A stretch of DNA of 32,000 nt from Pyrococcus furiosus DSM 3638 (lineage in GTDB: Archaea; Methanobacteriota_B; Thermococci; Thermococcales; Thermococcaceae): NCBI RefSeq assembly GCF_000007305.1, contig NC_003413.1:1568141-1600140 (forward strand), read 5' to 3'. The translations under genes and the position numbers were made by a program. Below are positions 422 to 21,641 of this stretch, in pieces. Each line of letters opens with the position of its first letter. The first letter of the stretch is position 1. The notes below the pieces were generated by a model that was not told the DNA's origin, searched no databases, and saw nothing but the letters and a program-made list of their open reading frames with translations.

Positions 422-447
422 TTTGGATAGGAACAGTTGCCCAAGAA

Positions 448-455
448 TTTAAATA
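448..455 (+). promoter_or_regulatory. Archaeal TATA box (TTTAAATA) for the wHTH/aro transcription unit.
   Basis: Matches the consensus-like TTTAAATA in an intergenic A/T-rich stretch. A near-identical module, CCAA(A)GAATTT(T)AAATA, recurs at 13498-13514. Confidence 0.5.
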
Positions 456-486: not shown

Positions 487-551
487 GGTGATGCCACGCC
501 AATTTACACAGCAAAAGGTGATGCCCCGCCAATGGGTGATGCCCTGCCAAT
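487..551 (+). repeat. Three direct copies of the 17-nt unit GGTGATGCCNNGCCAAT (487-503, 517-533, 535-551).
   Basis: Read directly: GGTGATGCCACGCCAAT, GGTGATGCCCCGCCAAT, GGTGATGCCCTGCCAAT. A fourth copy is at 13539-13555. Confidence 0.9.
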
Positions 552-559
552 ATCAATAG
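491..559 (+). CDS. Hypothetical 22-codon upstream ORF (MPRQFTQQKVMPRQWVMPCQYQ) formed by the three repeat units; candidate leader peptide.
   Basis: The ATGs at 491, 521 and 539 are all in one frame, with a TAG stop at 557-559. There is no homology evidence; the call rests only on the repeat and codon pattern. Confidence 0.3.
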   Translation: MPRQFTQQKVMPRQWVMPCQYQ

Positions 560-846
560 ATAACGGCGGGGTAGATGTTCTAAGAAAACTACTTCTTAGA
601 GCTTTAAACGAAAATCAGAGGCTTATACTTGAAAGCATAAACGGCAAGCACAGGTCATTGAACGCTCTACTTGAGGAACTTAGCAGAAAGAAAAGGAAAC
701 CACTGTCAACCCTAAAGCTTAATGCAAGAATTCTGAAGGAGCTAGGATTGATAGAATACGGAACAAAGGATGATCCAAAACCCGTTAGATTGACTGAAGA
801 AGGAAAACTTGTTCTGACAATTTTAAGAGGTGATGGAAGTGAGTGA
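532..846 (+). CDS. Small winged-helix (ArsR/MarR-like) DNA-binding protein; candidate regulator of the aromatic cluster.
   Basis: The 104-aa ORF reads NQRLILESINGKHRSLNALLEEL...TLKLNARILKELGLIEYG...PVRLTEEGK, a pattern typical of HTH plus wing. It is the first ORF after the promoter, and its stop overlaps the transketolase start. Confidence 0.65.
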   Translation: MGDALPISIDNGGVDVLRKLLLRALNENQRLILESINGKHRSLNALLEELSRKKRKPLSTLKLNARILKELGLIEYGTKDDPKPVRLTEEGKLVLTILRGDGSE

Positions 847-1492
847 AGTTCTTACAGTAAAGTTAAAAGAGATGCTAAAGCCTGTTAATGGCTTCCACAT
901 GAACTCCTCCTTAACTTGCCTTAGAATACTCCAAGCAGTTTTAGAACTAAAGAAGGAAGAAGATACGATAATAATAAGCAAGGGACATTCAGCCCCAGCA
1001 TTCTACGTTTTGCTCTGGAAAATGGGACTAATAAGTGACGAAGAACTTATGAGCTTCGCAGAAATTGACGGACTTCCAAGCCACGTAACTAGAGGACTCC
1101 CCTTTATTGAAGTCTCTTCAGGATCACTAGGTCAAGGCCTCTCTGTTGCAAACGGTATAGCACTAGCTAAAAAGATGGACAACAAGAAAGGCAGAATATT
1201 CGTTATTTTAGGAGATGGAGAGCTAGATGAGGGTCAAATATGGGAAGCTGCCATGACAGCAGCTCACCACAACCTTGACAATGTTGTAGCAATTATTGAC
1301 AGAAATTACCACCAGCTTACAGGACATACTGAAGATATACTCGCAAAAGAACCGTTAGCAGAGAAGTGGAAGGCCTTTGGATGGGAGGTTAGGGAAGTTG
1401 AAAATAATGTGGAAAAGCTAAAGGAAACCATAATCGAGCTAGAAAAGATCAATGATAGACCAAAAGTCATAATAGCGAGGTGGAATTGGTGA
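833..1492 (+). CDS. Transketolase, N-terminal (TPP-binding) subunit.
   Basis: Contains the GDGELDEGQIWEA thiamine-diphosphate motif and SKGHSAPAFY. GTG 830 and ATG 833 are alternative starts. Confidence 0.9.
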   Translation: MEVSEVLTVKLKEMLKPVNGFHMNSSLTCLRILQAVLELKKEEDTIIISKGHSAPAFYVLLWKMGLISDEELMSFAEIDGLPSHVTRGLPFIEVSSGSLGQGLSVANGIALAKKMDNKKGRIFVILGDGELDEGQIWEAAMTAAHHNLDNVVAIIDRNYHQLTGHTEDILAKEPLAEKWKAFGWEVREVENNVEKLKETIIELEKINDRPKVIIARWNW

Positions 1493-2412
1493 TAGAAAGC
1501 TTCAGAGAAGCTTTCGGAAGAGCACTTGTCGAAATTGGGAAGAAAAGAGAAGAGGTTGTAGTAATTGATGCGGATGTAAAAGGCTCAACAAAGACAATAT
1601 ATTTCGAAAAAGCATTCCCAAAAAGATTTATCCAAGTCGGAATAAGCGAACAAGATATGATAGGAACTGCGGCAGGGCTTGCAATTGCGGGTAAGATACC
1701 AGTAGCCTCTGCATTTGCAGTATTCCTAATGAGGGCCTGGGAACAGATAAGAAATACCGTAGCAAGAGACAACCTAAACGTGAAGATAGTAGGAACCCAT
1801 TCGGGATTTTCAGATTACATGGATGGATCATCCCATCAGTGTCTGGAAGATATCGCCCTTATGAGGGTTTTACCAAACATGAAGGTGGTTGTCCCAGCAG
1901 ACGCATACGCAACAAAAGTGCTGCTCGAGCAGATTATAGACACTTATGGACCAGTATATATGAGGTTGGGAAGAGACTATGCTCCAAGGGTTTACGAGGA
2001 TGGGACAAAGATAAAGCTAGGAAAGGCCAATGTGTTAAGAAAAGGAAAGGAAATACTTCTAGTGGCAGCTGGAACTTTAGTCCATACAGCGTTAAATGTA
2101 GCTAAAATGCTTGAGAAACTGAATGTAGATGCGAGTGTTATTGACATGCATACAATAAAGCCACTTGACGAAAAAACTCTCTTGAACTATGCAAAAAGAG
2201 CTGAATTAGTTATTACCCTTGAAGAACACAGCATTTATGGAGGGCTAGGAGGAGCAGTTGCGGAGGTTTTGAGCGAAAAACTTCCCAGGAGAGTAGTTCG
2301 GATAGGAACAGTAGAGTTTGGACAATCTGGTAGGGATTATCTTGCACTTCTAGACAGGTATGGATTAACACCCGACAAAATCTACCAAAAAATTGTCCAG
2401 GTGGTGATGTAA
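1480..2412 (+). CDS. Transketolase, C-terminal (pyrimidine-binding) subunit.
   Basis: Contains FIQVGISEQDMIGTAAGLA and a C-terminal domain. The start may be GTG 1480, or GTG 1489 overlapping the upstream TGA. Confidence 0.9.
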   Translation: MELVIESFREAFGRALVEIGKKREEVVVIDADVKGSTKTIYFEKAFPKRFIQVGISEQDMIGTAAGLAIAGKIPVASAFAVFLMRAWEQIRNTVARDNLNVKIVGTHSGFSDYMDGSSHQCLEDIALMRVLPNMKVVVPADAYATKVLLEQIIDTYGPVYMRLGRDYAPRVYEDGTKIKLGKANVLRKGKEILLVAAGTLVHTALNVAKMLEKLNVDASVIDMHTIKPLDEKTLLNYAKRAELVITLEEHSIYGGLGGAVAEVLSEKLPRRVVRIGTVEFGQSGRDYLALLDRYGLTPDKIYQKIVQVVM

Positions 2413-2422
2413 TTTGAGCGTT

Positions 2423-3211
2423 ATGAAGTACTCAAAAGAATACAAAGAGAAGACCGTAGTTAAAATCAATGACGTTAAGTTTGGTGAGGGGTTCACAATA
2501 ATCGCAGGGCCATGCTCAATAGAAAGCAGGGATCAAATTATGAAGGTGGCTGAATTTTTGGCAGAAGTTGGAATCAAAGTTTTGCGTGGGGGAGCATTTA
2601 AACCAAGGACTTCCCCCTATTCCTTCCAAGGGTATGGAGAAAAGGCCCTAAGGTGGATGAGAGAGGCCGCTGATGAATACGGATTAGTAACTGTAACTGA
2701 AGTTATGGACACAAGGCATGTCGAACTCGTGGCAAAATACTCAGACATCCTCCAGATAGGAGCCAGAAATTCCCAGAACTTTGAACTCTTAAAGGAGGTT
2801 GGTAAGGTGGAAAATCCAGTTCTGCTAAAAAGAGGCATGGGGAACACAATACAAGAGCTGCTATACTCGGCCGAATACATTATGGCGCAAGGAAACGAGA
2901 ACGTAATATTATGTGAAAGAGGTATAAGGACTTTTGAAACAGCTACGAGATTTACACTTGATATTTCTGCAGTCCCAGTGGTGAAGGAACTTTCTCACCT
3001 ACCAATTATTGTAGACCCCTCCCACCCAGCAGGAAGGAGAAGCCTAGTAATTCCACTAGCCAAGGCTGCATATGCCATTGGAGCAGATGGTATTATGGTT
3101 GAAGTTCATCCAGAACCAGAAAAGGCACTCTCAGATTCCCAGCAACAACTAACGTTTGATGACTTCTTACAACTACTAAAAGAGCTGGAGGCCCTGGGAT
3201 GGAAGGGATAA
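2423..3211 (+). CDS. 3-deoxy-D-arabino-heptulosonate-7-phosphate (DAH7P) synthase, type I-beta, catalytic barrel only.
   Basis: Contains the [19 protein letters not shown] and DPSH motifs. The 262 aa from [10 protein letters not shown] match my memory of the P. furiosus enzyme. There is no N- or C-terminal regulatory extension. Confidence 0.95.
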
Positions 3212-4206
3212 TTTTTGGAGATCTTTCAACACTTCCCGATTTGCTTTCTTCTCTTTCTCCCTACAAGGTAGTAGTTCTAACTAACACAACTCTAAAGGAA
3301 TTATGGCTCGAAGAAGTTCTAACGTGGTTAAAAGAGTTCAAACCCCAGACAATCGTTGTTCCAGATGGGGAAAAATACAAAGATTTAGATACAGTTAGAT
3401 ATATTTGGGAAAAATTACTAGAAATGGGATTTACACGAAGATCACTCCTAATAGGGTTAGGTGGAGGGGTTATAACAGACATTGCTGGTTTTGTTGCCTC
3501 AACATATATGAGAGGAACATACCTAGGTCTCGTTCCCACAACACTTCTAGCCCAAGTTGATGCAGCTATTGGGGGAAAAACTGGCATAAATTTCTACGGG
3601 AAGAATATAATTGGAACATTTTACCTTCCGAAATTCGTGCTAATTTGTAGGGACTTTCTCAAGACCCTCCCAATGGTGGAAATTCTTAATGGGTTAGCTG
3701 AAGTTGTGAAGTATGGAATACTAGACAAAGAAGTCTACAATGCAATTAAAACAATGAACTCTCCCAGGGAAATTGTAGAAAGGGAGGATATAATAAAGAA
3801 ATCTGTAGCGGTAAAACTGAGAATCGTAGAGGAAGATTTAAAGGAAAACGGAAAGAGGAGAGTTCTAAACTTGGGTCACACAGTAGGACATGCCATAGAG
3901 AAAATTTCTGACTACAAAATAAAACACGGCTTCGCAGTTTCAATGGGATTAGTTGTGGAAGCAAAAATTGGAGAAATATTGTATGGCTTTGATTCAGGGA
4001 AAGTTGTTGAGATACTAACTAAATTTGGTTTGCCTGTAAAAATACCCTTTGATCCATACACAACTCTTCAAGCCATGAAAATCGACAAAAAGGCTTGGTA
4101 CGGAAAGATAGTTATTGTTGTTCCGGTTGAGATTGGAAAAGCCAATATTGAGGAGGTAGATGAAAAGATAATTCTACAAGCGCTGGAGGAAGCTAAAAAT
4201 GCCTAA
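3199..4206 (+). CDS. aroB: 3-dehydroquinate synthase.
   Basis: Contains [19 protein letters not shown], the nucleotide-binding [11 protein letters not shown] and the metal site GHTVGHAIE. Confidence 0.92.
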
Positions 4207-4852
4207 ATTGGCCGGAGTTATAATAGCTAAAACCATTGAAGAAGCTGTAAAAAAGATAAAGCTACATGAAGCCGACCTTTATGAGCTTAGAGTAGATTAC
4301 CTGGAGAGCATGGAGAACATTGAACTCCTCTTACCTCATTCAAACAAGCTGATAGTGACCGTGAGGAAAGTAGAAGAGGGAGGAGCAAAACGCATTGAAG
4401 AACAAGAAAGGTTAAAATTATTTGAGAAGTTTGCAAAAATTAAACCTGCATATTTCGATGTTGAACTTTACTCAAATATCGTGGAGGATGTAATAAACCT
4501 CTCCTCAAAAATAGGGAGCAAAGTAATCCTATCATACCATAACTTTTCTAAAACTCCTTCATACCAAACTCTCCAATCAATTTTGGATTCGATGATAGAG
4601 CTTGAACCAGATATAATAAAAATCGTGACCTATGCGAGGGATTTTCGAGACAACATAGAGGTGATCAAACTCTACGAGAACAGCGAAAATCTAATTGCGT
4701 TTTGCATGGGCGAGAAGGGAAAAATTTCAAGAATATTTAGCGCCCTCTACTCTCCTTTTACGTATGTTAGCATTGACAATAGCGTAGCTCCTGGACAATT
4801 TACAGTTGGAGAGATGAGAAAAATCCTAGAATTGCTAGGTGAGACAAAATGA
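4199..4852 (+). CDS. aroD: 3-dehydroquinate dehydratase, type I.
   Basis: The length, ELRVDYL, SYHNF and IIKIVTYA are typical of type I DHQase. It lies between aroB and aroE. Confidence 0.88.
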
Positions 4853-5664
4853 TAAACGGAGAAACAAAAATTTATGGAATAATTGGCAATCCAGTAAAAC
4901 ACTCCTTGAGCCCAATAATGCACAACGCCCTATTCAAAAAATTTGGAATAAATGCCATTTACGTCCCATTCGAAGTGAAAAAAGATCTAAAGAATGCAAT
5001 AAACGGTGTTAAGGCACTTGACATTCAGGGAGTAAACGTTACAATGCCCTACAAAGAAGAAGTTATAAAATTCCTTGATGAGCTCTCCGAAGACTCTCAA
5101 AATATAGGAAGCGTAAACACTGTTGTGAACCTTGAAGGAAAGCTAGTGGGGTATACAACGGATGGAATAGGAGCCAGAAGAGCATTGGAGCGATTTACTC
5201 AGGTAGATGGGGCCAACATTTTAATTCTAGGAGCAGGAGGTGCTGGAAAAGCAATTGCATATGAACTCTCAAAAGTTGCAAATGTCGTAGTCTTAAACAG
5301 AACCATAGAGAAAGCCAAGAGGTTAGAAAAGTTTGGAATAGTGGGAGACTCCCTAGAAGCCCTCCCATATTATGTCGAGTGGGCAGATATACTGATTAAT
5401 GCAACCTCAGTTGGAATGAATGAAGAAAAAAGTCTAGTACCAAAGAATCTCCTAAGACCTGGGCTAGTTGTTATGGATATAGTCTACAAACCACTAAACA
5501 CCCTACTTCTTAGATATGCTCAGGAAAAGGGATGTATAGCTATTGATGGACTTTGGATGCTAGTCTATCAAGGAGCAGAGAGTTTTAGACTTTGGACTGG
5601 AGAGGAGGGAGACGTAGAACTTATGAGGAGGGTCGCCCTTGCGTGGCTTAGGGAAAGGAAGTAG
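4849..5664 (+). CDS. aroE: Shikimate 5-dehydrogenase.
   Basis: Has the N-terminus [27 protein letters not shown] and the Rossmann motif GAGGAGKA. Its ATGA start/stop overlaps aroD. Confidence 0.93.
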
Positions 5665-6460
5665 TGCAATAACTGTCGTTAATGCTTTTGCAACTGGAAA
5701 AGGCGGAGCTATTGGAATAGACCTATGGACTGAGGCCAAGGTAAAGATAACAGACGGAGAAGTTAAAGGGAAAATTCTTGTAAACGGGTTAGAATTCAAC
5801 GATTTTAGAGTAGTAAATGCCGTTTTGGATGTAATGAGGAGGTATTCTGGGATAGAATTTGGAATAGAGTTCGAGATAAACTCTGAAATACCCGTAGGAA
5901 AAGGTCTAAAAAGTAGCTCTGCCGTAGCAAATGCTCTTGTAGAAGCAATAGCAAGGGCTCTTCGCTTAAATATTCCCGGAATAAAGGTCGTAAAGCTTGG
6001 AGTTGAGGCAGCGAAAAAAGCAGGGGTAACATTGACGGGAGCTTTTGACGATGCTTGTGCCTCTTATTTTGGAGGTTTGTGCCTAACAGATAATCTAAGA
6101 GTTGAACTACTTAAGAGAATTGAAATTGATGAGTTGCCAGTGGTAATTTTAGTTCCAAATGAGACAGTTCTTACAGAAGAGCTGAAAGGGGTAGATTTCC
6201 TAAAAATAGCCCCCTATGTTGAGGAAGCATTCAAGCTTGCAATTAAAGGGGAATGGAAAAAGGCACTTGTTTTAAACGGATTGATATACTCAACATTTCT
6301 AAGCTATCCTCCTGAACCCATATCCAAAGCCTTACATCTTGGAGCTGTAGTGGGGTTAAGTGGAAAAGGACCAAGTGTATTTGCAATTACAGATGAACCG
6401 GAGAGGATAGAAGAAGTTTGGAGAGAATTTGGAGATGTTATAATTACTTCAACAAGATAA
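5639..6460 (+). CDS. aroK: Archaeal-type (GHMP-family) shikimate kinase.
   Basis: Contains the GHMP motif [15 protein letters not shown] and an N-terminus [12 protein letters not shown] like the M. jannaschii enzyme. TTG 5639 is the only start in the open frame. Confidence 0.85.
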
Positions 6461-6509
6461 GACGAAAAAGATAAATCCTGAAACATGATTTATTTTTGGT
6501 GATACTAAG

Positions 6510-7706
6510 ATGAGAAAGGTAGGAATTACACTTTCTGTAGTTGCTCTAGTAATAATGGGATTTGTAGCAGGATGTATTGGTGGTACTCAAACCCAGGGAG
6601 AAAAAGTAAAGGTAGCAGTTCTCTTTGACGTTGGAGGGAGGGGAGATTTAAGCTTCAATGATATGGCATACTTAGGAGCAGAAAGGGCAAAGAAAGAACT
6701 TGGAGTAGAAGTTGAATACATGACTCCAAAGTCTCGTGAAGATATGGTACCTTTACTAAAGCAACTGGCTGAAAGCAAGGAATATGACCTCCTAGTTCTA
6801 ATTGGGTTCCTTTGGACTACTCCATTAGATCAAGTAGCAGATCAATATCCAGATCAAAAGTTTGCCCTCATAGACTCAACTACTGGAAAAGTTAGGGAGA
6901 ATGAAGTAGATATTCTCTTTAGAGAACAAGAAGCTGCAGCACTCATAGGCGTGATAGCCTCTGGAATGGCCTATGAACTTGGTGGCGATACCATAGGTGC
7001 TGTAGCTGGAATGGACATTCCACCACTTTGGAAATTCCACATAGGCTACCTCTATGGAGCAAAGTATTTTGAGAAGAAGACTGGGAAGCCCGTGAAGTTG
7101 CTCTGGCAGTACACTGGAACATTTACAGATACACAAGTTGGATACACTACTGGAATGCAACTGTTGCAACAGGGTGCCAAAGTTCTCTATGGCCTAGCAG
7201 GTCTAACTCACGTTGGAATGTTTGACGCAGTAATCGACTGGAATAAGCAAGGAAAGGGCAAAGCACTTGCTATTGGTCAAGACGCAAGTCAAGAGTGGTA
7301 TGCACCAGAGTATATCCCAATTAGCGGAGCTAAGAGAGTTGACGTTGCTGTTTATACGGCCATTGAAATGGTTGTCAAAAATCAATGGAAAGGAGGAATA
7401 ATGACCCTCGGTCTCAAAGAGGGAGGCGTTGGCTACTGGAATTTGGATGGAGTTAGGCAATTTGCAGAATTTGCCCAGGAGGGTGGAAAACTAAAAGACA
7501 TGACCCCAGAAGATGTTGTTAGAATAGTAAAAGAGCAGAGAGAGAAGTACATAAAGCCAGAAGTTTGGGAGATCGTGCGTGAGCTTGAGGAGAAGATAAA
7601 GAATGGAGAGATAAAGTTCAAGACACCACAGAGCCACGACGAATATGAGCAGATAATTAAGGAGTTAGAGAAAGGTAACTTAGATGCCGCCCTCGAAAAA
7701 GAGTAA
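6510..7706 (+). CDS. BMP/PnrA/Med-family ABC-transporter substrate-binding lipoprotein.
   Basis: Has a signal/TM segment ending in the lipobox-like VAGCIGG. The BMP-like core includes DVGGRGDLSFND. A GGTGAT Shine-Dalgarno sequence lies 6 nt upstream of the ATG. Confidence 0.85.
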   Translation: MRKVGITLSVVALVIMGFVAGCIGGTQTQGEKVKVAVLFDVGGRGDLSFNDMAYLGAERAKKELGVEVEYMTPKSREDMVPLLKQLAESKEYDLLVLIGFLWTTPLDQVADQYPDQKFALIDSTTGKVRENEVDILFREQEAAALIGVIASGMAYELGGDTIGAVAGMDIPPLWKFHIGYLYGAKYFEKKTGKPVKLLWQYTGTFTDTQVGYTTGMQLLQQGAKVLYGLAGLTHVGMFDAVIDWNKQGKGKALAIGQDASQEWYAPEYIPISGAKRVDVAVYTAIEMVVKNQWKGGIMTLGLKEGGVGYWNLDGVRQFAEFAQEGGKLKDMTPEDVVRIVKEQREKYIKPEVWEIVRELEEKIKNGEIKFKTPQSHDEYEQIIKELEKGNLDAALEKE

Positions 7707-7707
7707 C

Positions 7708-7735
7708 TTTTTATTACCCCTTTCTCTTCTTTTTT
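7708..7735 (+). terminator. T-rich tract (T5 at 7708-7712, T6 at 7730-7735) after the binding-protein gene; possible partial terminator.
   Basis: Oligo-T runs are the archaeal termination signal. The position after an SBP gene is typical. No structure is required or seen. Confidence 0.25.
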
Positions 7736-7750
7736 CAGGTGTGCCAAGTT

Positions 7751-9256
7751 ATGAATGCAATTGAGATGGAGAATATAGTAAAGGTTTATCCAGATGGAGT
7801 TGTAGCCCTCAAGGGAGTCGACTTTAAAGTAGAAGCTGGGGAAATTCATGGTCTTCTTGGCGAGAACGGAGCTGGAAAAACAACGCTAATGAGGATCCTC
7901 TATGGGGAGATAAAGCCAACAAAGGGAAAAATAAGAGTTTTTGGAAAAGAAGTAAAATTTTCTGGGCCCTGGGACGCAATAAGATCAGGTATAGGAATGG
8001 TTTACCAGCACTTTACATTGGTCCCAACTTTTACTGTTCTTGAAAACCTTTACCTTGCCTTACTTCCATTAAATCCAAAAATTACCCTAAAAGAAGTCAA
8101 AAAACTTGCAAAAGAAAAGATGAAAGAAACTGGGCTCAAAATCCCCCTTGATGAAATAGTAGAGGATCTTCCTATTGGAATTCAGCAGAGAGTTGAGATA
8201 ACTAAGGCACTCATGCAAAATGCTAAGATTTTGATACTAGATGAGCCAACATCAGTATTAACTCCAATTGAAGTTAGAGAACTCTTCAAGACACTTAGAA
8301 AGCTCAAAGAAAAGGGAATTACAATAGTGTTCATTACCCACAAACTGAAGGAGGTAAAGGAGATAACTGATAGAGTCACCGTAATGCGAAGGGGAGAGGT
8401 AATTGGAACAGTGAAGACGAGTGAAGTTTCGGAAAAGGAGCTAGCAAAAATGATGGTGCAAAGGGACGTTGTAATGAAAATTGAGAAAATGCCCAAGGAG
8501 CCAGGAAAAACAGTGCTTAAGGTAGAGAATCTTTGGGTAAAGGACGATAGAGGATTAGATGCAGTAAAGGGAATATCACTAGAGATAAGGGAAGGAGAAA
8601 TACTCGGAATTGCAGGAGTTCAAGGAAATGGACAGAGAGAATTGGCTGAGACACTTGCAGGAGTTAGAAAACCAGAAAAAGGTAAAATTATCTTTGATAA
8701 AAAAGATATTACAAAAACAGGAGCACTTGAAAGATATAAGATGGGAATTGCATACGTTCCCGATTCCAGAAAAGTAGGATTAGTGGAAGAGATGAACATA
8801 GTAGAAAACACCATTCTCACAAATTTATTTGAAGTAGTTAAATCCGGAAGAATTTCTTGGGACAAGGGAAGAAAAATGGCAAAAGATATTGTAGAGAGGT
8901 TTGAAGTCATTACTCCATCCTTAGCTGCCAAAGTAAAACACTTGAGTGGAGGGAACCAACAAAAAATAATGGTTGGAAGAGAGATAATCAGAGAACCAAA
9001 GGTCTTCATAGTTGCAGAGCCAACTCAAGGGTTGGATATAGGAGCAACGGAATTCATAAGAAAAACATTACTGAATCTTAGAGATCAAGGAAAGGGAATT
9101 CTCCTAATTTCAACAGATCTAGATGAGATTCTTCAATTAAGTGATAGAATTGCCGTGATATATGAGGGTCAAATTATGGCAGTTGGAAAACCTGAAGAGT
9201 TCACCCTTGAGAAGCTAGGACTGCTAATGGGTGGTGTGCATGCTGAAAGTGAATGA
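7751..9256 (+). CDS. ABC transporter ATPase with two fused nucleotide-binding domains.
   Basis: Contains Walker A GENGAGKTT, Walker B ILILDEPT and the signature LSGGNQQK in the second half. ATG 7751 is preferred over GTG 7739. Confidence 0.9.
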   Translation: MNAIEMENIVKVYPDGVVALKGVDFKVEAGEIHGLLGENGAGKTTLMRILYGEIKPTKGKIRVFGKEVKFSGPWDAIRSGIGMVYQHFTLVPTFTVLENLYLALLPLNPKITLKEVKKLAKEKMKETGLKIPLDEIVEDLPIGIQQRVEITKALMQNAKILILDEPTSVLTPIEVRELFKTLRKLKEKGITIVFITHKLKEVKEITDRVTVMRRGEVIGTVKTSEVSEKELAKMMVQRDVVMKIEKMPKEPGKTVLKVENLWVKDDRGLDAVKGISLEIREGEILGIAGVQGNGQRELAETLAGVRKPEKGKIIFDKKDITKTGALERYKMGIAYVPDSRKVGLVEEMNIVENTILTNLFEVVKSGRISWDKGRKMAKDIVERFEVITPSLAAKVKHLSGGNQQKIMVGREIIREPKVFIVAEPTQGLDIGATEFIRKTLLNLRDQGKGILLISTDLDEILQLSDRIAVIYEGQIMAVGKPEEFTLEKLGLLMGGVHAESE

Positions 9257-10229
9257 GAAAACACTCGAAGTTATATCTTCGCTAATATTTGCATTCTTAA
9301 TAGGGGCAATTGTCTTAACATTGTTGGGATATAACCCGGCTAAAGTTTACATCATACTATTTAAATACGGGTACGGAAATCTTGAGTATCTCCTTAATAA
9401 AAGCACACCACTTATATTGACAGGACTTGCATTCTCAATACCAGCTCTTGCAGGTGTTTTTAACATAGGGGGAGAAAGCCAACTTTATGTAGGTGCACTT
9501 ACAGCCCTTCTAGTTGCTTATTATACAAGAAATCCTATTTTAGCCCTAATCCTCGGAGGAATAGCAGGAGGTGCCTTAGGACTTTTCATCGGAGCACTTA
9601 GAGTTTACAGAGGCATTAATGAAGTGATAACGGCAATAATGATAAACTGGACAATGTTCTACATTCTAGCGTACCTCATATCAGCCAAATACCACGATCC
9701 AAAAAATCCTCATGAATCCGTTCCAGTCCCATCTGAAGCAAGAATAGGGGGAATTTTCATAATTGCAGTTCTTATTGCTATTCTCTACTATTACCTCCTT
9801 AATTTTACGGAACTTGGGTACAAGTTGAGGGTGTCAGGATTGTCACCTAAATCTGCAAGGTATGCAGGGTTCAATCCCTCCAAGCTAATTCTCTCTTCAA
9901 TGCTATTGGGTGGTCTAGCTGCGGGCCTTGGAGGGGCCCTCTTAGTCCTGGGAATAACATATGCTATTGATGACACTCTCTCCACAGTATATGGAGTTGG
10001 ATTTACGGGAATAGGAATAGGGCTCTTGGGAAGGAACAATCCAATAGGAATAATATTCTCGGGAATATTTATGAGCGGACTGATAATTGGAGGGCAATGG
10101 GTTGAGTTAAAAACAGGAGCCCCACCAGAGCTTGCAGATACGCTAGTAGGTGTAATAGTGATAACCCTTGCAGTTCCCCAGCTGTATAGAGAAATTTTCA
10201 AGAGAATTAGGAGGGAGAAGCATGCTTGA
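9240..10229 (+). CDS. ABC transporter permease (BMP-system, YufP-like).
   Basis: Polytopic hydrophobic protein. ATG 9240 overlaps the ATPase stop and follows GGTGGTG. Confidence 0.85.
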   Translation: MLKVNEKTLEVISSLIFAFLIGAIVLTLLGYNPAKVYIILFKYGYGNLEYLLNKSTPLILTGLAFSIPALAGVFNIGGESQLYVGALTALLVAYYTRNPILALILGGIAGGALGLFIGALRVYRGINEVITAIMINWTMFYILAYLISAKYHDPKNPHESVPVPSEARIGGIFIIAVLIAILYYYLLNFTELGYKLRVSGLSPKSARYAGFNPSKLILSSMLLGGLAAGLGGALLVLGITYAIDDTLSTVYGVGFTGIGIGLLGRNNPIGIIFSGIFMSGLIIGGQWVELKTGAPPELADTLVGVIVITLAVPQLYREIFKRIRREKHA

Positions 10230-11130
10230 AGATGTATTTGTGCTTCTCTCAAACACATTATTTTCAATGGTCCCATTGGTTCTTGCTGGGGTTGGAGAAG
10301 TAATAACAGAGCGCTCTGGAGTGGTTAACATCGGGCTAGAGGGGATATTCATTCTCTCTGCCTTCCTCACAACTGTAGTTACGTTTTACACAGAAAATCC
10401 CTATCTGGGCCTCATAATTGGAATATTAGTTGGAGCACTCTCCGGACTTCTCCACGGGATAATCAGCGTATACTTGAAAGGTGATCAAATAATTGCAGGA
10501 GTTGGTTTTAATTCTCTAGCCTATGGAATAAGCATACTTTCACTTGTAGCCCTATGGCACAGTCACGGCTCCTCTCCTTCTGTAGAAAAGATGCCCGTAA
10601 TTATTATCGGCCACCTTACAATTCCCCCAATGGCAATAGTGGCAATATTAGTTGGAGTAATTACATGGTGGTGGCTATATAAAACTCCAAGCGGTTTAAA
10701 ACTGAGAGCTTGTGGAGAGGATCCAAGAGCTGCTGAGGCTATGGGGGTTAACGTTCACAGAACTAGGCTATATGCAACGATGGTGGGGGGAGCTTTAACT
10801 GGGCTCGGAGGTGCGTATTTAGTTGTGGGATGGATAGGGCAGTTTACAAAGTTTATATCGGCAGGAAGAGGATTCATAGCCCTAGCAAATGTAGCTTTCA
10901 GCAATTGGAATCCACTGATGGCAGTGGTGGGGGGAATTATATTTGGATTCTTTGACGCACTGTCAATATACGTACCAATAAAGATCCAGAAAACCACTGG
11001 AAGAATAATAACCGCAGAATCAAATCTCTTTAGGATAATCCCATATATAGGAACATTATTAGTGGTCACAATAATCATGAAAAAAGTTAAAGCTCCCAGG
11101 GCTCTTGGGAAACCTTATATCAAGGAGTAA
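10222..11130 (+). CDS. ABC transporter permease (BMP-system, YufQ-like).
   Basis: Polytopic protein containing GEVITERSGVVNIGLEG. ATG 10222 overlaps the previous stop (ATGCTTGA). Confidence 0.85.
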   Translation: MLEDVFVLLSNTLFSMVPLVLAGVGEVITERSGVVNIGLEGIFILSAFLTTVVTFYTENPYLGLIIGILVGALSGLLHGIISVYLKGDQIIAGVGFNSLAYGISILSLVALWHSHGSSPSVEKMPVIIIGHLTIPPMAIVAILVGVITWWWLYKTPSGLKLRACGEDPRAAEAMGVNVHRTRLYATMVGGALTGLGGAYLVVGWIGQFTKFISAGRGFIALANVAFSNWNPLMAVVGGIIFGFFDALSIYVPIKIQKTTGRIITAESNLFRIIPYIGTLLVVTIIMKKVKAPRALGKPYIKE

Positions 11131-11142
11131 CTTTCTTTCCCT

Positions 11143-11186
11143 TTTTAAATTCTGGCCAGCTCCACTAATCCAAAAAACAATAAATT
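11143..11186 (+). promoter_or_regulatory. Candidate internal promoter(s) for aroA: TTTTAAAT (11143-11150) and AATAAATT (11179-11186).
   Basis: These are A/T boxes in the 76-nt gap. The second lies about 25 nt upstream of ATG 11207, which has no Shine-Dalgarno sequence, so the transcript may be leaderless. Confidence 0.3.
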
Positions 11187-11206
11187 CATTGGAAGTAGCA
11201 TTCCAC

Positions 11207-12427
11207 ATGCTTAGAATTGTTCCACCAAAAGAAATTCAAGGTGAAGTAATAGCCCCGCCCTCAAAGAGCTACACCCATAGGGGTTATTTTTTGTCCCTCC
11301 TTGCAGATGAAAAAAGTATAGTAGAGAGACCCCTAATTAGTGATGATACCCTTGCAACCATAGATGCAATTAGAGCTTTTGGTGCTGATCTCATAGAAGA
11401 GGTGGTCTATCCTCCCGAAGAATTAAGGCCAAACTATATATTTGCCCGAGATTCTGGAACAACAGCAAGGATTTCAATAATAGTTTCTTCCCTAGCTAAG
11501 GGTGTTAGTGTAATAGATGGTAGGGAACAGCTCCGTAGGAGACCAATGGAAGATGGAGTATCTTCTTTGAGAATGATTGGTGTAGAAGCAATTGGAAAGA
11601 GACTTCCAGTGAAAGTCTTTGGGAGGGGAAGAATTAGTGCCAAAGAAGTCTCCATAGTGGCCGAAAAGTCCTCTCAATTTGCAACAGGCTTTCTAATACT
11701 AGCAGCGAAGATCGGATTGAAAGTCGAAATAGTGAAACCAGTCTCAAAGCCTTATATTGAGATGACACTAAAAACCATGGAAGAGTTTGGCGTTAAATAC
11801 GATAAAGCTCAAGAAAATGAGAGACTAGTAATTTTTGTTGACCCAGGAGTTAAGGGGACAAAATTTAAGGTTCCAGGGGATTATTCCTCAGCGGCAAACT
11901 TCTTAGTTGCCGGTGCACTCTACGGCAAGATAAGGGTCAGAAACTTGATGAGGGATGACGTTCAAGCAGACAAAGAAATCCTCAACATATTGAGGGAATA
12001 TGGAGCAAAAGTTAAGGTAAAAGATGAGTATGTAGAAGTTGAAAGCAACGAAAGAAATCCATTAAATGTAGATTGCTCAAACTTTCCTGATTTATTTCCC
12101 CTCCTAGCTGTTCTTGCGGCATATGCCGAAGGAAAAAGTGTGATACGAGGGAGACAGTTGAGGATTAAAGAAAGTGACAGAATCCATGCAATGGCGGTAA
12201 ATCTTTCAAGAGCTGGAATTAGAGTTAGGGAGCTTAGTGATGGACTTGAAATCTGGGGTGGCCAACCTAAGGGATTTAGGGGGAAAACATTCAATGATCA
12301 TAGGATTACAATGGCTTTAGCAATCCTCGCCCTGGGGGCTAAGGGCGAGAGTATAATTCCTGAAACTAAAAGTATTGCAAAGTCCTATCCAAACTTTTTC
12401 GAGGATTTAATGAGGGTGATAAAATGA
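11207..12427 (+). CDS. aroA: 5-enolpyruvylshikimate-3-phosphate synthase.
   Basis: Contains APPSKSYTHRG, PGDYSSAANFLVAG, LRIKESDRI and NDHRITMA. The start at MLRIVPP fits family N-termini; the longer ORF from 11105 is rejected. Confidence 0.92.
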   Translation: MLRIVPPKEIQGEVIAPPSKSYTHRGYFLSLLADEKSIVERPLISDDTLATIDAIRAFGADLIEEVVYPPEELRPNYIFARDSGTTARISIIVSSLAKGVSVIDGREQLRRRPMEDGVSSLRMIGVEAIGKRLPVKVFGRGRISAKEVSIVAEKSSQFATGFLILAAKIGLKVEIVKPVSKPYIEMTLKTMEEFGVKYDKAQENERLVIFVDPGVKGTKFKVPGDYSSAANFLVAGALYGKIRVRNLMRDDVQADKEILNILREYGAKVKVKDEYVEVESNERNPLNVDCSNFPDLFPLLAVLAAYAEGKSVIRGRQLRIKESDRIHAMAVNLSRAGIRVRELSDGLEIWGGQPKGFRGKTFNDHRITMALAILALGAKGESIIPETKSIAKSYPNFFEDLMRVIK

Positions 12428-13511
12428 ATGGGAAAATGTTGTCATTTCACTTATTTGGAGAGAGTCATGGGAAAGCCGTAGGAGAGTTCTAATAGAAGGA
12501 GTGCCTCCTGGGATAAGAGTTAACCTGGAGGAGTTAAAAGCCGAACTTGAAAGAAGAAAGGGGATTTCCAAATTTTCAACTGCCAGAAAAGAGAGCGACG
12601 AACCTATAATAATTTCCGGAGTTTTTAGAGGATACACTACTGGAGCTCCAATAACAGTAATTGTGGAAAATAAAGACGTAGATTCTTCATATTATGAGGA
12701 GATCAAAGATACTCCTCGACCTGGGCATGCAGATTATCCAGCAAAGATCAAGTATTTTGGCTTCAATGACTATCGAGGAGGAGGAAGGTTTTCTGGAAGG
12801 CTAACTATAGGCTTTGTAATCGCCGGATATTTCGCCAAGAAGATTCTCGAACCAGTGGGAGTAAAAATTAAAGCCTATATAAAGAGAGTTGGAAAAGTGG
12901 AAGCTAGAAACATGAGCATCGAGGAAATATTCAATTCTCCGAACCCTTACTGCCCAGATGAAGATGCATTTAAAGAGATGCTTAAGGAGATGGAAAGTGC
13001 AAAAAAGTCTGGAGACAGCGTTGGTGGAGTGGTAGAGGTTGTTGCAATAAACGTTCCCCCAGGATTAGGTGGACCTTATGAGGATGATATAGAAGCTGAT
13101 CTTGCCTCAACATTTTTCAGAATTCCAGCTGTAAAGGGTGTTGAGTTTGGACTTGGATTTAAGGTTAGTGAAAAGAGAGGTAGTGAAGTAAACGACCCTT
13201 ATGTCATAAAGAACGGAGAAATACAGACGGTAACAAACAATCATGGAGGCATTATAGGAGGAATAACAACAGGAATGCCAATAGTAGCTAGAATAGCGTT
13301 CAAACCAACTCCCTCAATATACCTTCCCCAAAAAACCGTAAATTTAAGAGAAATGAAGGAAACAACTATAAAGCTAAAGGGGAGATTTGACTCCTGCATA
13401 GTTCCTAAAGCTCTTCCCGTGGTTGAAGGTGCAATGGCCTTTGTGCTTGCAGATCACTTTCTTAGGAGGTTAGCCTGGGAAAGATATGTCCACCTATCCA
13501 AAGAATTTTAA
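12424..13511 (+). pseudogene. aroC: Chorismate synthase with the first 22 codons out of frame with the 336-codon main ORF (12501..13511). This may be a frameshift, a recoding event or a sequence error.
   Basis: ATG 12424 reads MNGKMLSFHLFGESHGKAVGEF, then a stop at 12490-12492. The other frame continues VLIEGVPPGIRV..., RPGHADY and GGGRFSGR. Removing GA from GGAGAGTT (12481-12488) restores GESHGKAVGVLIEGVPPG. Confidence 0.8.
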
Positions 13512-13514
13512 ATA
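13507..13514 (+). promoter_or_regulatory. TATA box (TTTAAATA) for the chorismate mutase / aminotransferase / tyrA unit.
   Basis: It overlaps the aroC stop and is paralogous to the 441-455 module. It lies 24 nt upstream of GTGGGGATGGTGAT. Confidence 0.5.
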
Positions 13515-13536
13515 AAAGGACAACCAAAAAGTGGGG

Positions 13537-13569
13537 ATGGTGATGCCACGCCAATATCAACGAATTTAG
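13537..13569 (+). CDS. Hypothetical 10-codon upstream ORF MVMPRQYQRI (or MPRQYQRI from 13543).
   Basis: Same frame logic as at 491..559, with a TAG stop at 13567-13569, 8 nt before the chorismate mutase ATG. There is no homology evidence. Confidence 0.25.
   Translation: MVMPRQYQRI
13539..13555 (+). repeat. Fourth copy of the 17-nt unit (GGTGATGCCACGCCAAT).
   Basis: Identical to unit 1 at 487-503. The following GCCAATATCAA matches the tail of unit 3. Confidence 0.9.
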
Positions 13570-13577
13570 ATGAACAA

Positions 13578-13808
13578 ATGACAACATTAAAACTCCTTAG
13601 AAAGGAGATAGATAAAATAGACAACCAAATAATATCTCTTCTAAAAAAGAGACTTGAAATAGCCCAAGCAATTGGGAAAATAAAGAAAGAGCTCAATCTC
13701 CCCATAGAAGATAGAAAAAGAGAAGAAGAAGTTCTAAGAAGAGCTGGCGAGTTTAGGGAAATTTTTGAAAAGATTTTGGAGGTTAGCAAAGATGTTCAAC
13801 GTTTATGA
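13578..13808 (+). CDS. Chorismate mutase, AroQ class (monofunctional, 76 aa).
   Basis: Contains LRKEIDKIDNQIISLLKKRLEIAQAIGKIKK...PIEDRKREEEVL, typical AroQ helices. Confidence 0.85.
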   Translation: MTTLKLLRKEIDKIDNQIISLLKKRLEIAQAIGKIKKELNLPIEDRKREEEVLRRAGEFREIFEKILEVSKDVQRL

Positions 13809-14829
13809 GCTATTTAATAAGATAAATGAGGTAAAACCAGAGATTCGACTTGATGCAGGACAACCAGATATCCCCGTAGCTAACGAAATAATAGAAGAAG
13901 CCATAAATTCTCTAAAAAGGGGAGAAACTGGCTATGTAAGTACAACTGGAATTAACGAGTTGAGAGAAAAGATAGCAGAAGTAGAAGGAGTGAGCAAAGA
14001 AGAGGTAATTGTTGGGCCTGGAGCCAAAATATTGATAGCTGCAGAGATAGCAATGGCCAACAAGATTGGAGTAATTGCCCCCTACTGGAATGCCTACCTA
14101 TTGATAGCCAAGAACTTTGAAAAAGAAGTTAAAATAATTGAGACAACATTAGAAAACTCCTGGGAGCCTGAAATTAACGACAACTTAGATGTTGACCTCC
14201 TAATTCTCAACTACCCCAATAACCCTACTGGAAAAATACTCCCAAGAGAAAAACTCAAAGAACTCGTAGAAGTTGCAGAAGAGAAAGGAATCAAAATTCT
14301 TTCCGATGAAATCTATGCTGAAATTTCTTTTAAGTCATTTACTCCTGTTCGAGAGCTCTATGAAAACACGGTCACCGTAAAGGGGTTCTCCAAACTGTAT
14401 TCAATGACTGGCTTTAGGCTTGGATACGCTATTGCCGATAAGGAAGAGATAAGGAAAATAAAAACATTCATTGAATCAACTGTCACCTGTGTTCCTCCTT
14501 TCGTTCAAAGGGCTGGGATCAAGGCTTTGGAGCTTAGAGATGAGTTAATGAAAAAAGTGAGTAGGGAGTATAAGAGAAGAGCAGAACTTGCCTCCAAAAT
14601 CTTGAGGGGATTAGAGTTCTATGAACCCGATGGAGCATTCTACATATTCCTCAAAACACCCATTGATGGGTTGGAATTTGTCTATAAACTACTCGAGAGG
14701 GGAGTTTCAGCATTCCCAGGAATAGCGTTTGGAAATTATCAAAACTTCATAAGGATCTCACTAACGAGTGATAAGCTCGAGAAGGGATTAAACATAATCA
14801 AGGAGGTAGCAGAATGCGAATCACAATAA
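13792..14829 (+). CDS. Class I PLP aminotransferase (aspartate/aromatic type).
   Basis: Contains NYPNNPTG and the PLP-lysine region FSKLYSMTGFRLGY. ATG 13792 overlaps the chorismate mutase 3' end. Confidence 0.88.
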   Translation: MFNVYELFNKINEVKPEIRLDAGQPDIPVANEIIEEAINSLKRGETGYVSTTGINELREKIAEVEGVSKEEVIVGPGAKILIAAEIAMANKIGVIAPYWNAYLLIAKNFEKEVKIIETTLENSWEPEINDNLDVDLLILNYPNNPTGKILPREKLKELVEVAEEKGIKILSDEIYAEISFKSFTPVRELYENTVTVKGFSKLYSMTGFRLGYAIADKEEIRKIKTFIESTVTCVPPFVQRAGIKALELRDELMKKVSREYKRRAELASKILRGLEFYEPDGAFYIFLKTPIDGLEFVYKLLERGVSAFPGIAFGNYQNFIRISLTSDKLEKGLNIIKEVAECESQ

Positions 14830-15588
14830 GTGGATATGGTAAAATGGGAAAACTCTTTGGAAGAGTTCTTTCTGAGGAATTAAACTCAGAAGTGAAATTT
14901 TACTCTAGCCATACAATACTAGATTTTTCCACCCTTAGTGAAGCCTATGAATGGAGTGATGTTATGATACTCGCCTCCACAATAGATAACATAAAAGCTC
15001 AGATTAGGGAGTTAAGAGAGATATCATTGAGTAATCCAAAAGATATTATGATTTTTGACATAGCAACGTTCAAAAAAGACGTACTTACCGAGTACCAAGG
15101 ATTTCCCAGGGAGGTAAAAGTAGCAAGCGTCCACCCAATGTTCGGCCCAGGAGCTAAGAGTTTTAGGGGGCATTTATTTTATCGTTGTCCCTGTAAAGGG
15201 CAGGGAAAAAGACGCCGAAGATGTCGGAAAGTTTATCGAAGGATTGGGGGGAAAAGTTGAATTTATGAGTGTGGAGGAGCATGATAGAATAGTTGGATTC
15301 GTTATTGGAGTGCCCTATCTATTGGGCATTGCATATCTTAAACTATCACTTGAAAACAATCTAGAAAGATTTGGGGGGACCTCTTTTAGATTTCTAACAA
15401 TTTATGGAAAGGCAGTGCTAAATGATGGTCCAAGGTTTATAGAAGAAGTCATTAGAAGATCTAGAGAAGAGATAGCAGAATTCCTAAAGAGTATAGATTC
15501 TGTAAATGTGCATGAACTATCTAAAAAAGTCTCAAGAGAAGAGATAGAGAGGGCATATGAAAAGTTTTACAAAATTTTAGATCCCTAA
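14814..15588 (+). pseudogene. tyrA: Prephenate dehydrogenase split into two ORFs (14814..15260 and 15244..15588) by a 1-nt frameshift at a G5 run.
   Basis: The upstream frame reads ...SVHPMFGPGAKSFRG, then an Arg/Cys-rich nonsense tail. The +1 frame, open from 15124, reads IYFIVVPVKGREKDAEDVGKFIEGLGGKVEFMSVEEHDRIV. Deleting one G in 15166-15170 joins them. Confidence 0.8.
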
Positions 15589-20917: not shown

Positions 20918-21603
20918 TATATCTCAGCCTCCACGAATTTTTTGAGAAGTTCTGCGGGATTTTCAGCTTTCATTAAAGCCGTCCCAATGAGTGCAGCATC
21001 AGCAACCCTTAAGGCCCTCTTCAAATCTTCCAATGTTGCTATTCCGCTTTCACTAACTTTCACGAATTTTCCTGGGATTTTTGGAGCTAAAATTTCAGTT
21101 AGAGAAACATCTCCATCGTCCATCTCTAGCTTTCCAATGTCCCTATTGTTTATTCCTATCATTGTAGAATTTGTTTTAATTGCGAGCTTTAGCTCATCTT
21201 CGGTATGAACTTCCACTAGAGTGTCAAGCCCATGCTCTTTTGCATAATCCACAAACTCTGGCAGCTTATCTTTCAATATTCTAGTTATTAATAGAACAGC
21301 AGAGGCACCAACTTCGGCAGTTTTTTCAATTTCCTCTTTGCTTGTTATAAAGTCCTTCCTCAGCACTGGGAGGGTAGTTTCCTTACATAAAACTTTTAGA
21401 AAGTCAAAGCTCCCTTTGAAATACTTTTGATCTGTTATGTAAGAAATCCCCACAGCTCCAGCTTCTTCATATGCCCTCAAAATCCTTAGAGGATCCCTGC
21501 CCCGTAAAAGATCTCCATATTTTGGAGAATAGACTTTGATTTCTGCTATAATAGGATTTTTCTTAGCCTTTCTAATAGCCCTGCTCAGTCCAAAAATCAC
21601 CAC
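20917..21603 (-). CDS. trpC: Indole-3-glycerol-phosphate synthase.
   Basis: Contains IAEIKVYSPKYG, RKDFI and NNRD. The GTG start at 21603 lies 8 nt after GGTGGAG. Confidence 0.9.
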   Translation of the reverse strand: MVIFGLSRAIRKAKKNPIIAEIKVYSPKYGDLLRGRDPLRILRAYEEAGAVGISYITDQKYFKGSFDFLKVLCKETTLPVLRKDFITSKEEIEKTAEVGASAVLLITRILKDKLPEFVDYAKEHGLDTLVEVHTEDELKLAIKTNSTMIGINNRDIGKLEMDDGDVSLTEILAPKIPGKFVKVSESGIATLEDLKRALRVADAALIGTALMKAENPAELLKKFVEAEI

Positions 21604-21641
21604 CCATTATACTCCACCACTACGACAAAAATAACATGATA

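Follow-up and report, generated by a model that had tools for sequence, protein, structure and literature searches.

Why does the gap between aroC and the chorismate mutase (CM) gene of Pyrococcus furiosus DSM 3638 hold a copy of a short sequence unit that also stands, three times over, in front of the activator gene tar, and why is that copy followed by a tyrosine codon? The DNA analysed here, called the window below, is a 32-kb stretch of this genome whose sequence matches the 2001 assembly. Locus A is the promoter and leader in front of tar and the aro genes, and locus B the promoter and leader at 13487-13577, in front of CM and the other genes of the tyrosine branch. In Thermococcus kodakarensis, Tar binds the palindrome TGGACA-N8-TGTCCA upstream of the TFB recognition element (BRE) and TATA box at the aro, tyr-phe and trp promoters; aromatic amino acids were without effect on this binding, and recognition of the absence of a single amino acid was left open by the authors (PMC6737238). 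Our comparison of the unit across Archaea points to an answer. A -1 frameshift at an aromatic codon, in which scarcity of the charged tRNA would send the ribosome out of the leader and into the frame of the gene behind it, is the best explanation that we can offer for the module at 13487-13577, and probably the right one.

A repeated unit behind Tar-box promoters

Four exact copies of GGTGATGCCNNGCCAAT lie in the window, at 487, 517, 535 and 13539, all on the plus strand, against 0.04 expected from shuffles, and no further copy was found there with up to two mismatches. The fourth is the one before CM to which a first-pass annotation, made from the sequence of the window, had drawn attention (13539-13555), and the 66-nt length that it gave for the aroC-CM gap (13512-13577) is right. 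The resemblance between the two loci extends beyond the unit, much as had been described: CCAA(A)GAATTT(T)AAATA is common to both (441-455 and 13498-13514), as is GTGG(GG)ATGGTGAT (473 and 13531), and a tail, GCCAATATCAA, is shared as well, at coordinates one base to the left of those first given (546-556 and 13550-13560). What had been called a TATA module is indeed a shared element, and it also holds the proximal half-site of a Tar box. The view of locus B as a paralogous promoter and leader holds good too; it is the counterpart of the T. kodakarensis tyr-phe promoter, which Tar binds and activates (PMC6737238). A unit stands at the equivalent position before CM in a Pyrococcus relative (L174; L numbers denote related loci), in T. 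kodakarensis and in several metagenome-assembled genomes (MAGs). Because the unit recurs before CM in relatives, the similarity of loci A and B is no local accident.

A genome scan with a Tar alignment yielded 80 loci, all from MAGs, and the isolates P. chitonophagus, T. gammatolerans, P. abyssi, T. paralvinellae and T. kodakarensis were added through exact-protein look-ups. Lineages in the scan were Thermococci, Thermoplasmata (including halophilic lineages), Bathyarchaeia, Korarchaeia-like Thermoproteota, Nitrososphaeria and Aenigmatarchaeota. The module, made up of a Tar box, a TATA box and the unit, was recognised in 73 non-redundant promoters from Thermococci, Thermoplasmata, Bathyarchaeia and other archaea. 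Unit matches with at most three substitutions in 1.05 Mb of related loci all lie on the tar strand, 22-25 nt after a TATA box that is itself preceded by a Tar box; they stand before tar and also at second promoters within the same loci. Across the 73 promoters, which represent at least five archaeal lineages, the C-CAA of the unit falls 40-48 nt past the TATA box. The Bathyarchaeia variant, (V/M)..VHQLQ-Y, has TCCAATATC as its invariant core. CM genes that lack a separate promoter, as in T. paralvinellae, L175 and L177, have no unit.

At locus B the Tar box is degenerate, agreeing with TGGACA-N8-TGTCCA at 5/6 positions in its proximal half and at 3/6 in its distal half; the orthologous CM promoters of T. 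kodakarensis and L174 carry good Tar boxes. Published differential RNA sequencing (dRNA-seq) of T. kodakarensis served as the reference for transcription start sites (TSSs), and those of P. furiosus were placed by geometry. The primary TSSs in T. kodakarensis are 227747(-) for TK0271, the tar gene, and 219368(-) for TK0261, the CM gene (PMC4247193, supplementary file 2). Both are the first G of GGTGA(T/C)(C)GGTGATG, 23-25 nt after TTAAAT, which puts the AUG of the unit at +12 and +11, respectively, and with the TSSs mapped to that G no upstream start is possible. By the same geometry, transcription in P. furiosus would begin at about 479 at locus A and at about 13536-13537 at locus B, and the leader ATG of locus B would therefore be leaderless or nearly so.

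Two reading frames under selection

Read in the frame of its ATG, the unit opens a very short peptide, and the leader proposed in the first-pass annotation, from ATG 13537 to a TAG with TAT as the variable codon, is correct. Its orthologues before CM are VMPRQYL* in L174, VMSRQYRVLIL* in T. kodakarensis, VMQRQYP* in L002 and VMPSQYRRMMNRS* in L006 (asterisks denote stops). Tabulating the codon after the unit in related genomes, as had been suggested, gave TTT/TTC, TGG or TAT/TAC directly after the invariant CAA in 71/73 promoters; the expectation failed in L014, with ATG, and in L073, with CAC. Both synonymous codons are in use for Phe and for Tyr, and the other-frame residue that overlies the aromatic codon varies freely (S, L, F, Y, C, R, H). 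Serial units are always in phase, their spacers differing in sequence and in length (18, 30, 33, 36 and 51 nt, each length a multiple of three), and the frame closes 1-23 codons after the last unit in the 73 promoters. The codon also follows the pathway. The order F-W-Y stands before tar in Pyrococcus, T. kodakarensis, several Thermococcus MAGs and a DHVE2 MAG, with W-Y, F-Y, Y or W in others; Y stands before CM/tyrA operons (P. furiosus, L174, T. kodakarensis, L002, L003, L006) and F before prephenate dehydratase in two Thermoplasmata (L013, L021). The earlier idea of a Tyr leader before the Tyr branch and an F+W+Y leader before the common pathway is thus sustained by the comparative data. 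Taken together, the alignment strongly supports the view that the codon after the unit is a selected aromatic codon. Two neighbouring positions are constrained as well. The base before CAA is C in 91/94 and T in 3/94 non-redundant units, though the amino acid of the codon to which it belongs varies widely, and the Gln codon of the unit is always CAA, CAG being 3-5 times commoner in the ORFs just downstream.

Could the unit instead be a protein-binding site in DNA or RNA, serving a second regulator as operator or acting as an initially transcribed element, with the codon pattern as a by-product? The fixed distance from the TATA box would suit such a site, as would the repetition at locus A, which operators often show. 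All copies, however, keep a single strand and phase despite spacers (30, 33, 36, 51 nt) that vary in length and sequence, their variable positions are codon-like (TTT/TTC, TAT/TAC), and the triplet behind the unit changes with the pathway. Tar binding itself maps to the palindrome upstream of the TATA box (PMC6737238), and locus B has neither an Rfam match nor significant RNA structure. We give a binding site hardly any chance of being the explanation.

Classical attenuation was considered and rejected, there being no terminator/antiterminator at locus B: no terminator-like site was found on the plus strand at 13300-13900, the fold of the locus B RNA was not significant (z = -1.9), and no alternative hairpins were seen in it. 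The leader stop and the CM ATG are, besides, only 8 nt apart. No Rfam family reached its gathering score anywhere in the 32-kb window, and no T-box or other known cis-regulatory RNA was matched. RNA structure was likewise rejected as a general mechanism, with hairpins at locus A and in Bathyarchaeia and none at locus B and many other loci.

The other frame of the unit at locus B, GDATPISTNLDEQ, is open into the CM ATG at 13578, as the first-pass annotation had noted. It had offered this frame (GDATPIS...) as a target of selection instead of the leader, an alternative that the comparison of 73 promoters does away with, since both frames are needed together. In 73/73 promoters, the long ORF after the last unit (44-363 codons) lies in the -1 frame relative to the leader, and it encodes Tar, CM, prephenate dehydratase or a coupling ORF. 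Between serial units no -1-frame stop occurs in any of the 73. The linker from unit to conserved domain is 8-17 codons long and variable in sequence, its frame always kept, and this frame has been retained despite many linker indels and differing downstream genes.

Many of these genes have no start codon of their own. From the start-site region to the conserved domain, the Tar frame contains no ATG, GTG or TTG in 46/63 genes, and in two further Tar genes the sole start is an ATG made by a Gln-Trp pair (CAA-TGG); the scored CM genes have no ATG, GTG or TTG in their frame in 4/4 cases. In several Bathyarchaeia tar ORFs the first start codon comes at about codon 82-91, or there is none at all (L034). 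Among 35 distinct Bathyarchaeia sequences, column variability has a period of three that peaks at the third positions of the -1 frame (1.19 bits vs 0.26 and 0.53), and this signal begins directly after the invariant core. A different arrangement occurs at a second promoter in Thermoplasmata, where a Y unit is followed by a -1-frame ORF of about 50 codons whose stop overlaps the ATG of a class-I 3-deoxy-D-arabino-heptulosonate 7-phosphate (DAHP) synthase gene, and the C-terminus of this ORF is conserved (...F[FS][EK][VI]YLRRGYD*). Given that overlap, translation of the -1 frame matters even without a fusion, and the Thermoplasmata arrangement would be a coupling version of the same switch.

The missing starts have left their mark on annotation. 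In TK0261 the CM frame has no start codon downstream of the TSS until an internal Met, and for this reason RefSeq gives the gene as a 58-aa fragment (219081-219257) from which half of the domain, the N-terminal one with the conserved LRRRIDEID, is missing; a second call of 103 aa (L087 18298-18609) starts on an ATC inside the TATA box. Absence of a start codon accounts for the inconsistent annotation of TK0261 and of Bathyarchaeia tar (L034, L044, L057). Tar homologues have been called at 69 to 165 aa, often with odd N-terminal extensions in which a repeated GD[VA]PP[IM] represents units read in the tar frame. In all, dozens of tar and CM genes have been called truncated, given impossible starts in the TATA box or missed. 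An extended Tar, with the GDAPPI repeats as a translated N-terminus from an upstream start, was rejected, because TGA-TAG closes the P. furiosus tar frame before unit 1 and the mapped TSSs also leave no upstream start.

The leader might sense aromatic amino acids with no recoding at all, a stalled ribosome blocking 5'-3' decay in the manner of ermC, preventing factor-dependent termination or polarity, or controlling reinitiation. The conservation of the aromatic codon, the ATG and a nearby stop would be expected of such a device; the CM ATG lies just past the leader stop in P. furiosus and L174, the leader stop of T. gammatolerans overlaps the CM ATG as TAATG, and T. kodakarensis RNA-seq reads, about 10-fold higher on TK0271 than on TK0270 in two conditions, are compatible with polarity after the leader. 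What this account leaves unexplained is the -1 placement of the downstream gene in 73/73 promoters with no intervening stop, the translation of the startless genes (46/63 Tar, 4/4 CM), and the C before a CAA that is never CAG. In its simplest form, termination and reinitiation, it also has the wrong sign, for stalling would lower the activator that is needed in starvation. We allow a sensor without recoding a minor chance as the whole explanation; recoding and a leader that protects the mRNA, counters polarity or controls reinitiation could operate side by side.

Initiation at a non-AUG codon is another conceivable route into the gene's frame: an SD-like (Shine-Dalgarno-like) GGUGAU, a 9-nt spacer and then AUA, AUU or AUG as the start, the ATG frame being a competing or incidental upstream ORF (uORF). 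GGUGAU is complementary to the 3' end of 16S rRNA, CCA is followed in the -1 frame by AUA, AUU or AUG in every case, and a true ATG stands exactly there in T. gammatolerans CM and in every Gln-Trp unit. That AU[A/U/G], however, follows automatically from CAA before a codon that starts with U and is not independent evidence, and the SD-like sequence is missing at this distance in Bathyarchaeia units. To our knowledge, neither AUA nor AUU is an established archaeal start codon. A ribosome stalled on the aromatic codon would cover such a start, which gives the wrong regulatory sign, and the restriction to F, Y and W, the synonymous codon use, the match to the pathway and the C before CAA would all go unexplained. 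Non-AUG initiation therefore appears improbable.

A candidate hungry-codon frameshift sensor

The frameshift sensor that we favour would work as follows. Initiation would occur at the leader AUG or GUG, the sole available start, and yield the peptide M-x-x-Q (Met-Pro-Arg-Gln at locus B). With Tyr-tRNA plentiful, Tyr would be added and translation would end a few codons on, leaving a dead-end peptide. With Tyr-tRNA scarce, the A site would stay empty and the peptidyl-tRNA-Gln(UUG) would slip from CAA to CCA, keeping its pairs at positions 1 and 3. The A site would then hold AUA (Ile) at locus B, and AUA, AUU or AUG elsewhere, and the ribosome would continue in the -1 frame into CM, Tar or PheA. 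Before tar and the aro genes, F, W and Y units in series would let shortage of any one among these amino acids produce Tar, which would activate the aro, trp and tyr operons, including the one that encodes it. In P. furiosus, the CM ATG at 13578 may provide a basal, frameshift-independent route at locus B. Predicted junction peptides are MVMPR / QISTNLDEQMTTLK for P. furiosus CM and QISSPDLVELAILR for T. kodakarensis CM; for P. furiosus Tar they would be QISIDNGGVDVLR after a shift at Tyr, QMGDALPISIDNGGVDVLR at Trp and QIYTAK at Phe.

Three features fit this slip and are otherwise unexplained: the C or T before CAA, the invariant CAA, and the aromatic codon directly next to it. Either C or T would serve in front, since both can pair with G36 of the tRNA afterwards, and CAA, never CAG, is read by the UUG anticodon, which could keep its U34-A pair through the slip. 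The regulatory sign is right, in that starvation yields the activator or the enzyme, and the predicted induction of all three operons on lack of any single amino acid matches what has been reported for T. kodakarensis. Codon identity and pathway match fit the aromatic codon as a slow A-site sensor; that the pause causes the shift is what we infer from them.

Several observations weigh against the frameshift. The site C-CAA-U is no classical X-XXY-YYZ heptamer: only a single P-site tRNA re-pairs, at 2/3 positions, and the middle pair (U35 with C) is mismatched after the slip. No conserved downstream stimulatory structure exists at locus B; GCGGAG-N8-CTCCGC after the site in Bathyarchaeia and the hairpin at 540-572 of locus A are neither of them general. 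Recoding is not strictly needed in P. furiosus, where both tar (ATG 532) and CM (ATG 13578) have in-frame ATGs, and the close relative L174 also retains a CM ATG. At T. gammatolerans CM, a degenerate unit, MVMFR*, has its stop overlapping a normal ATG exactly at the AUA position, which has the look of ordinary translational coupling. A GUG stands at +2, in the tar frame, in three-unit Thermococcus tar mRNAs. To these may be added the non-aromatic codons of L014 (ATG) and L073 (CAC), and the lack of a unit at certain Tar-box promoters, as at L014 pheA, and before certain CM genes, as in T. paralvinellae. Since the loci are related by descent, raw counts overstate the number of independent events, and the mechanism as a whole is drawn from comparative sequence analysis and published TSS positions.

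How does the proposed switch compare with known systems? The trpL, pheL and hisL leaders of bacteria likewise place a mini-ORF with codons for the pathway product at the 5' end of the mRNA, where the ribosome reads the supply of charged tRNA. The archaeal module differs in having no terminator/antiterminator or U-tract, in carrying one regulatory codon per unit and not a run, and in its proposed output, a change of frame; the frameshifting reported for E. coli pheL is regarded as incidental (PMC5009743). In hungry-codon frameshifting as studied by Gallant in E. coli, shortage of an aminoacyl-tRNA leaves the A site empty and the P-site tRNA slips by one base, just as is supposed here (PMC8211752; PMC5009743). 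That is known as an error or a laboratory phenomenon, whereas here it would be a conserved, designed output; a 2016 review knew of no natural hungry-codon frameshift that gives a functional trans-frame protein under starvation (PMC5009743). The closest logic is that of prfB and antizyme, in which a frameshift is both sensor and effector. With prfB the module has in common a short first ORF, a slow A-site codon, a product in another frame that has no start of its own, and an upstream SD-like element (PMC5009743). The shift is +1 in prfB and -1 here, and the slow codon is a stop there and a sense codon for the end product here; the present module is, moreover, archaeal, uses a CAA shift codon with 2/3 pairs kept, and is joined to a transcriptional activator.

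Within Archaea, the only -1 frameshift in a cellular gene reported by a 2021 review is that of Saccharolobus solfataricus fucA1 (PMC8211752). Two ORFs are joined in the -1 frame there as well, at an A-AAA-AAT heptamer with flanking rare codons and a stem-loop, in mid-gene, in one species and with unknown regulatory meaning. The site described here, in contrast, lies at codons 4-5 of the mRNA, has no heptamer, is conserved across phyla and has a clear metabolic logic. The Tar regulon of T. kodakarensis provides the counterparts of loci A and B in its Tar-bound aro and tyr-phe promoters, but its published account is transcriptional only, with no aromatic effector, and mentions neither the unit nor the aromatic codons nor the frame relation (PMC6737238). 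No prior description of the element was found in the literature on Thermococcales, aromatic genes, and frameshifting, uORFs or attenuation.

For Archaea at large, we lean towards the view that at least five lineages use hungry-codon frameshifting as a sensor of aromatic amino acids, so that Tar, CM or prephenate dehydratase would be made only on shortage, and that a prfB-like +1 version may gate trpC; these would be the first natural case of starvation-induced frameshifting to functional proteins, apparently an ancient and widespread one, and for Archaea the first amino-acid sensor of the leader-peptide type. If true, this answers how the Tar regulon senses Phe, Trp and Tyr, with three serial codons gating translation of the activator itself, and it extends ribosome-based sensing of amino acids, a bacterial paradigm, to Archaea with a different output. 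A small modular unit with one codon per amino acid could also be a portable amino-acid-responsive switch for the engineering of thermophiles.

Coordinates, neighbouring genes and the trp leader

Table 1. Positions of the features discussed, numbered from the first base of the window except in the last row, where they refer to the related loci named.
Feature	Position	Strand	Remarks
17-nt unit GGTGATGCCACGCCAAT, locus B	13539-13555	+	SD-like GGTGAT, ATG, two variable codons, CAA, T; conserved across archaeal phyla
Leader ORF MVMPRQYQRI* (0 frame)	13537-13569	+	ATG GTG ATG CCA CGC CAA TAT CAA CGA ATT TAG; stop TAG 13567-13569
Proposed -1 shift site C-CAA-TAT	13551-13557	+	P-site Gln CAA 13552-13554, A-site Tyr codon 13555-13557
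Degenerate Tar box AAGATA-N8-TATCCA	13481-13500	+	Overlaps 3' end of aroC; aligns with Tar box and TATA of 70+ orthologous/paralogous promoters
BRE/TATA (AATTTTAAATA) of the tyrosine-branch promoter	13504-13514	+	Common to locus A 445-455; same position as the TK0261 TATA
Predicted TSS zone	13533-13538	+	T. kodakarensis geometry would give G13536/A13537
-1 frame ORF, PISTNLDEQ followed by CM	13551-13808	+	Open from the unit into CM; stop 13806-13808
CM (PF1701)	13578-13808	+	Matches PF01817; own ATG 13578
Aminotransferase (PF1702)	13765-14829	+	Second gene of the operon
Prephenate dehydrogenase (PF1703)	14814-15588	+	Two ORFs, split by a 1-nt insertion near 15168
Locus A Tar box TGGATA-N8-TGCCCA (424-443) and TATA (448-455)	424-455	+	Matches the published consensus at 10/12
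Locus A leader ORF VMPRQ-F-TQQK-VMPRQ-W-VMPCQ-Y-Q*	488-559	+	Units 487-503, 517-533, 535-551
tar (PF1687, TK0271-family activator)	532-846	+	In the -1 frame of the leader; ATG made by CAA-TGG (Gln-Trp) codon pair
Small ORF MGGDFWTEQGY*	21572-21607	-	ATG GGT GGT GAT TTT TGG ACT GAG CAG GGC TAT TAG; overlaps trpC start (GTG 21603)
Thermoplasmata coupling ORF / DAHP synthase gene	L018 200-373 / 363-1427; L026 about 7926-8080 / 8068-9141		Also L012, L019, L022, L023, L024

The window is laid out as in T. kodakarensis (Table 1): tar comes first, then the aro genes (830-13511), then PF1701, PF1702 and PF1703, with the trp operon convergent on the minus strand. The winged helix-turn-helix (wHTH) protein of 532-846 is PF1687 and belongs to the TK0271 (Tar) family, and the first-pass identification of the genes after the unit as CM, an aminotransferase and prephenate dehydrogenase was also accurate. 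No Shine-Dalgarno (SD) sequence was seen before the CM ATG at 13578. The 2019 assembly differs from the window by 2 nt inside or upstream of aroC (12424-12501, 13511; offsets 1551474 vs 1551472), and the annotated start of aroC differs as well, giving 361 aa vs 336 aa in the window.

At locus A, the units follow one another at 30 and 18 nt, and their aromatic codons are F at 503-505, W at 533-535 and Y at 551-553. A 9-bp hairpin at 540-572 pairs unit 3 (UGCCCUGCC) with GGCGGGGUA of the tar N-terminal coding region, its loop holding the Tyr codon and the leader stop. T. kodakarensis has a 7-bp equivalent, CCCCGCC/GGCGGGG, and locus B has none. This hairpin might affect how readily the tar ATG or the last unit is reached. 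The tar leaders of two isolates are lineage-specific variants. That of P. abyssi (L085 9935-10010) reads MPYQ-W-KILE*, in which one W unit carries a Tyr codon at position 3, and is preceded by a longer 5' region with a decayed ATGGTGA repeat; that of T. gammatolerans (L084 9940-10010) reads MSRLGRSSNQVMPHQ-Y-W-*, with the Tyr and Trp codons adjacent.

The trp promoter of the window, on the minus strand with a TGTCCA half-site and a TATA box, has no unit. It is followed by a small ORF with trpC in its +1 frame, at GAT-TTT-TGG-A. P. abyssi has an identical MGGDFW, T. stetteri and L001 have GGT GAT GGT TTT TGG, L173 has GGA CTT TGG, and L022, a Thermoplasmata MAG, has GTT TGG; in L022 the trpC frame has no start codon and is closed by a TAG immediately ahead of the conserved FGL. 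With NUU-UGG-N, an SD-like GGUGAU 0-3 nt upstream and trpC in +1, the arrangement is nearer to the CUU-UGA-C of prfB than the unit is. An ATG or GTG of their own is present in most Thermococcales trpC genes, and for this reason we treat a switch at the trp small ORF as a lead and not as a finding. A metagenome scan with a TrpC alignment returned only relatives of at most 50% identity and no Thermococcales.

Two other features of the window deserve mention. The junction in PF1703 near 15165-15170 reads AAG AGT TTT AGG GGG C ATT TAT..., which looks like a 1-nt insertion, and the split ORF is annotated likewise in the re-sequenced genome of 2019. P. furiosus tyrA may be a pseudogene, or a +1 shift may be required for its expression; a split tyrA is odd for an operon under the guard of a Tyr sensor. 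Finally, a BMP-family ABC transporter (substrate-binding protein, ATPase and two permeases) occupies 6510-11130, within the aro operon between the genes for shikimate kinase and 5-enolpyruvylshikimate-3-phosphate (EPSP) synthase. The same insertion is found in P. chitonophagus and P. abyssi and is absent from T. kodakarensis and T. gammatolerans. The transporter might carry an intermediate of the shikimate pathway, or else an aromatic compound.

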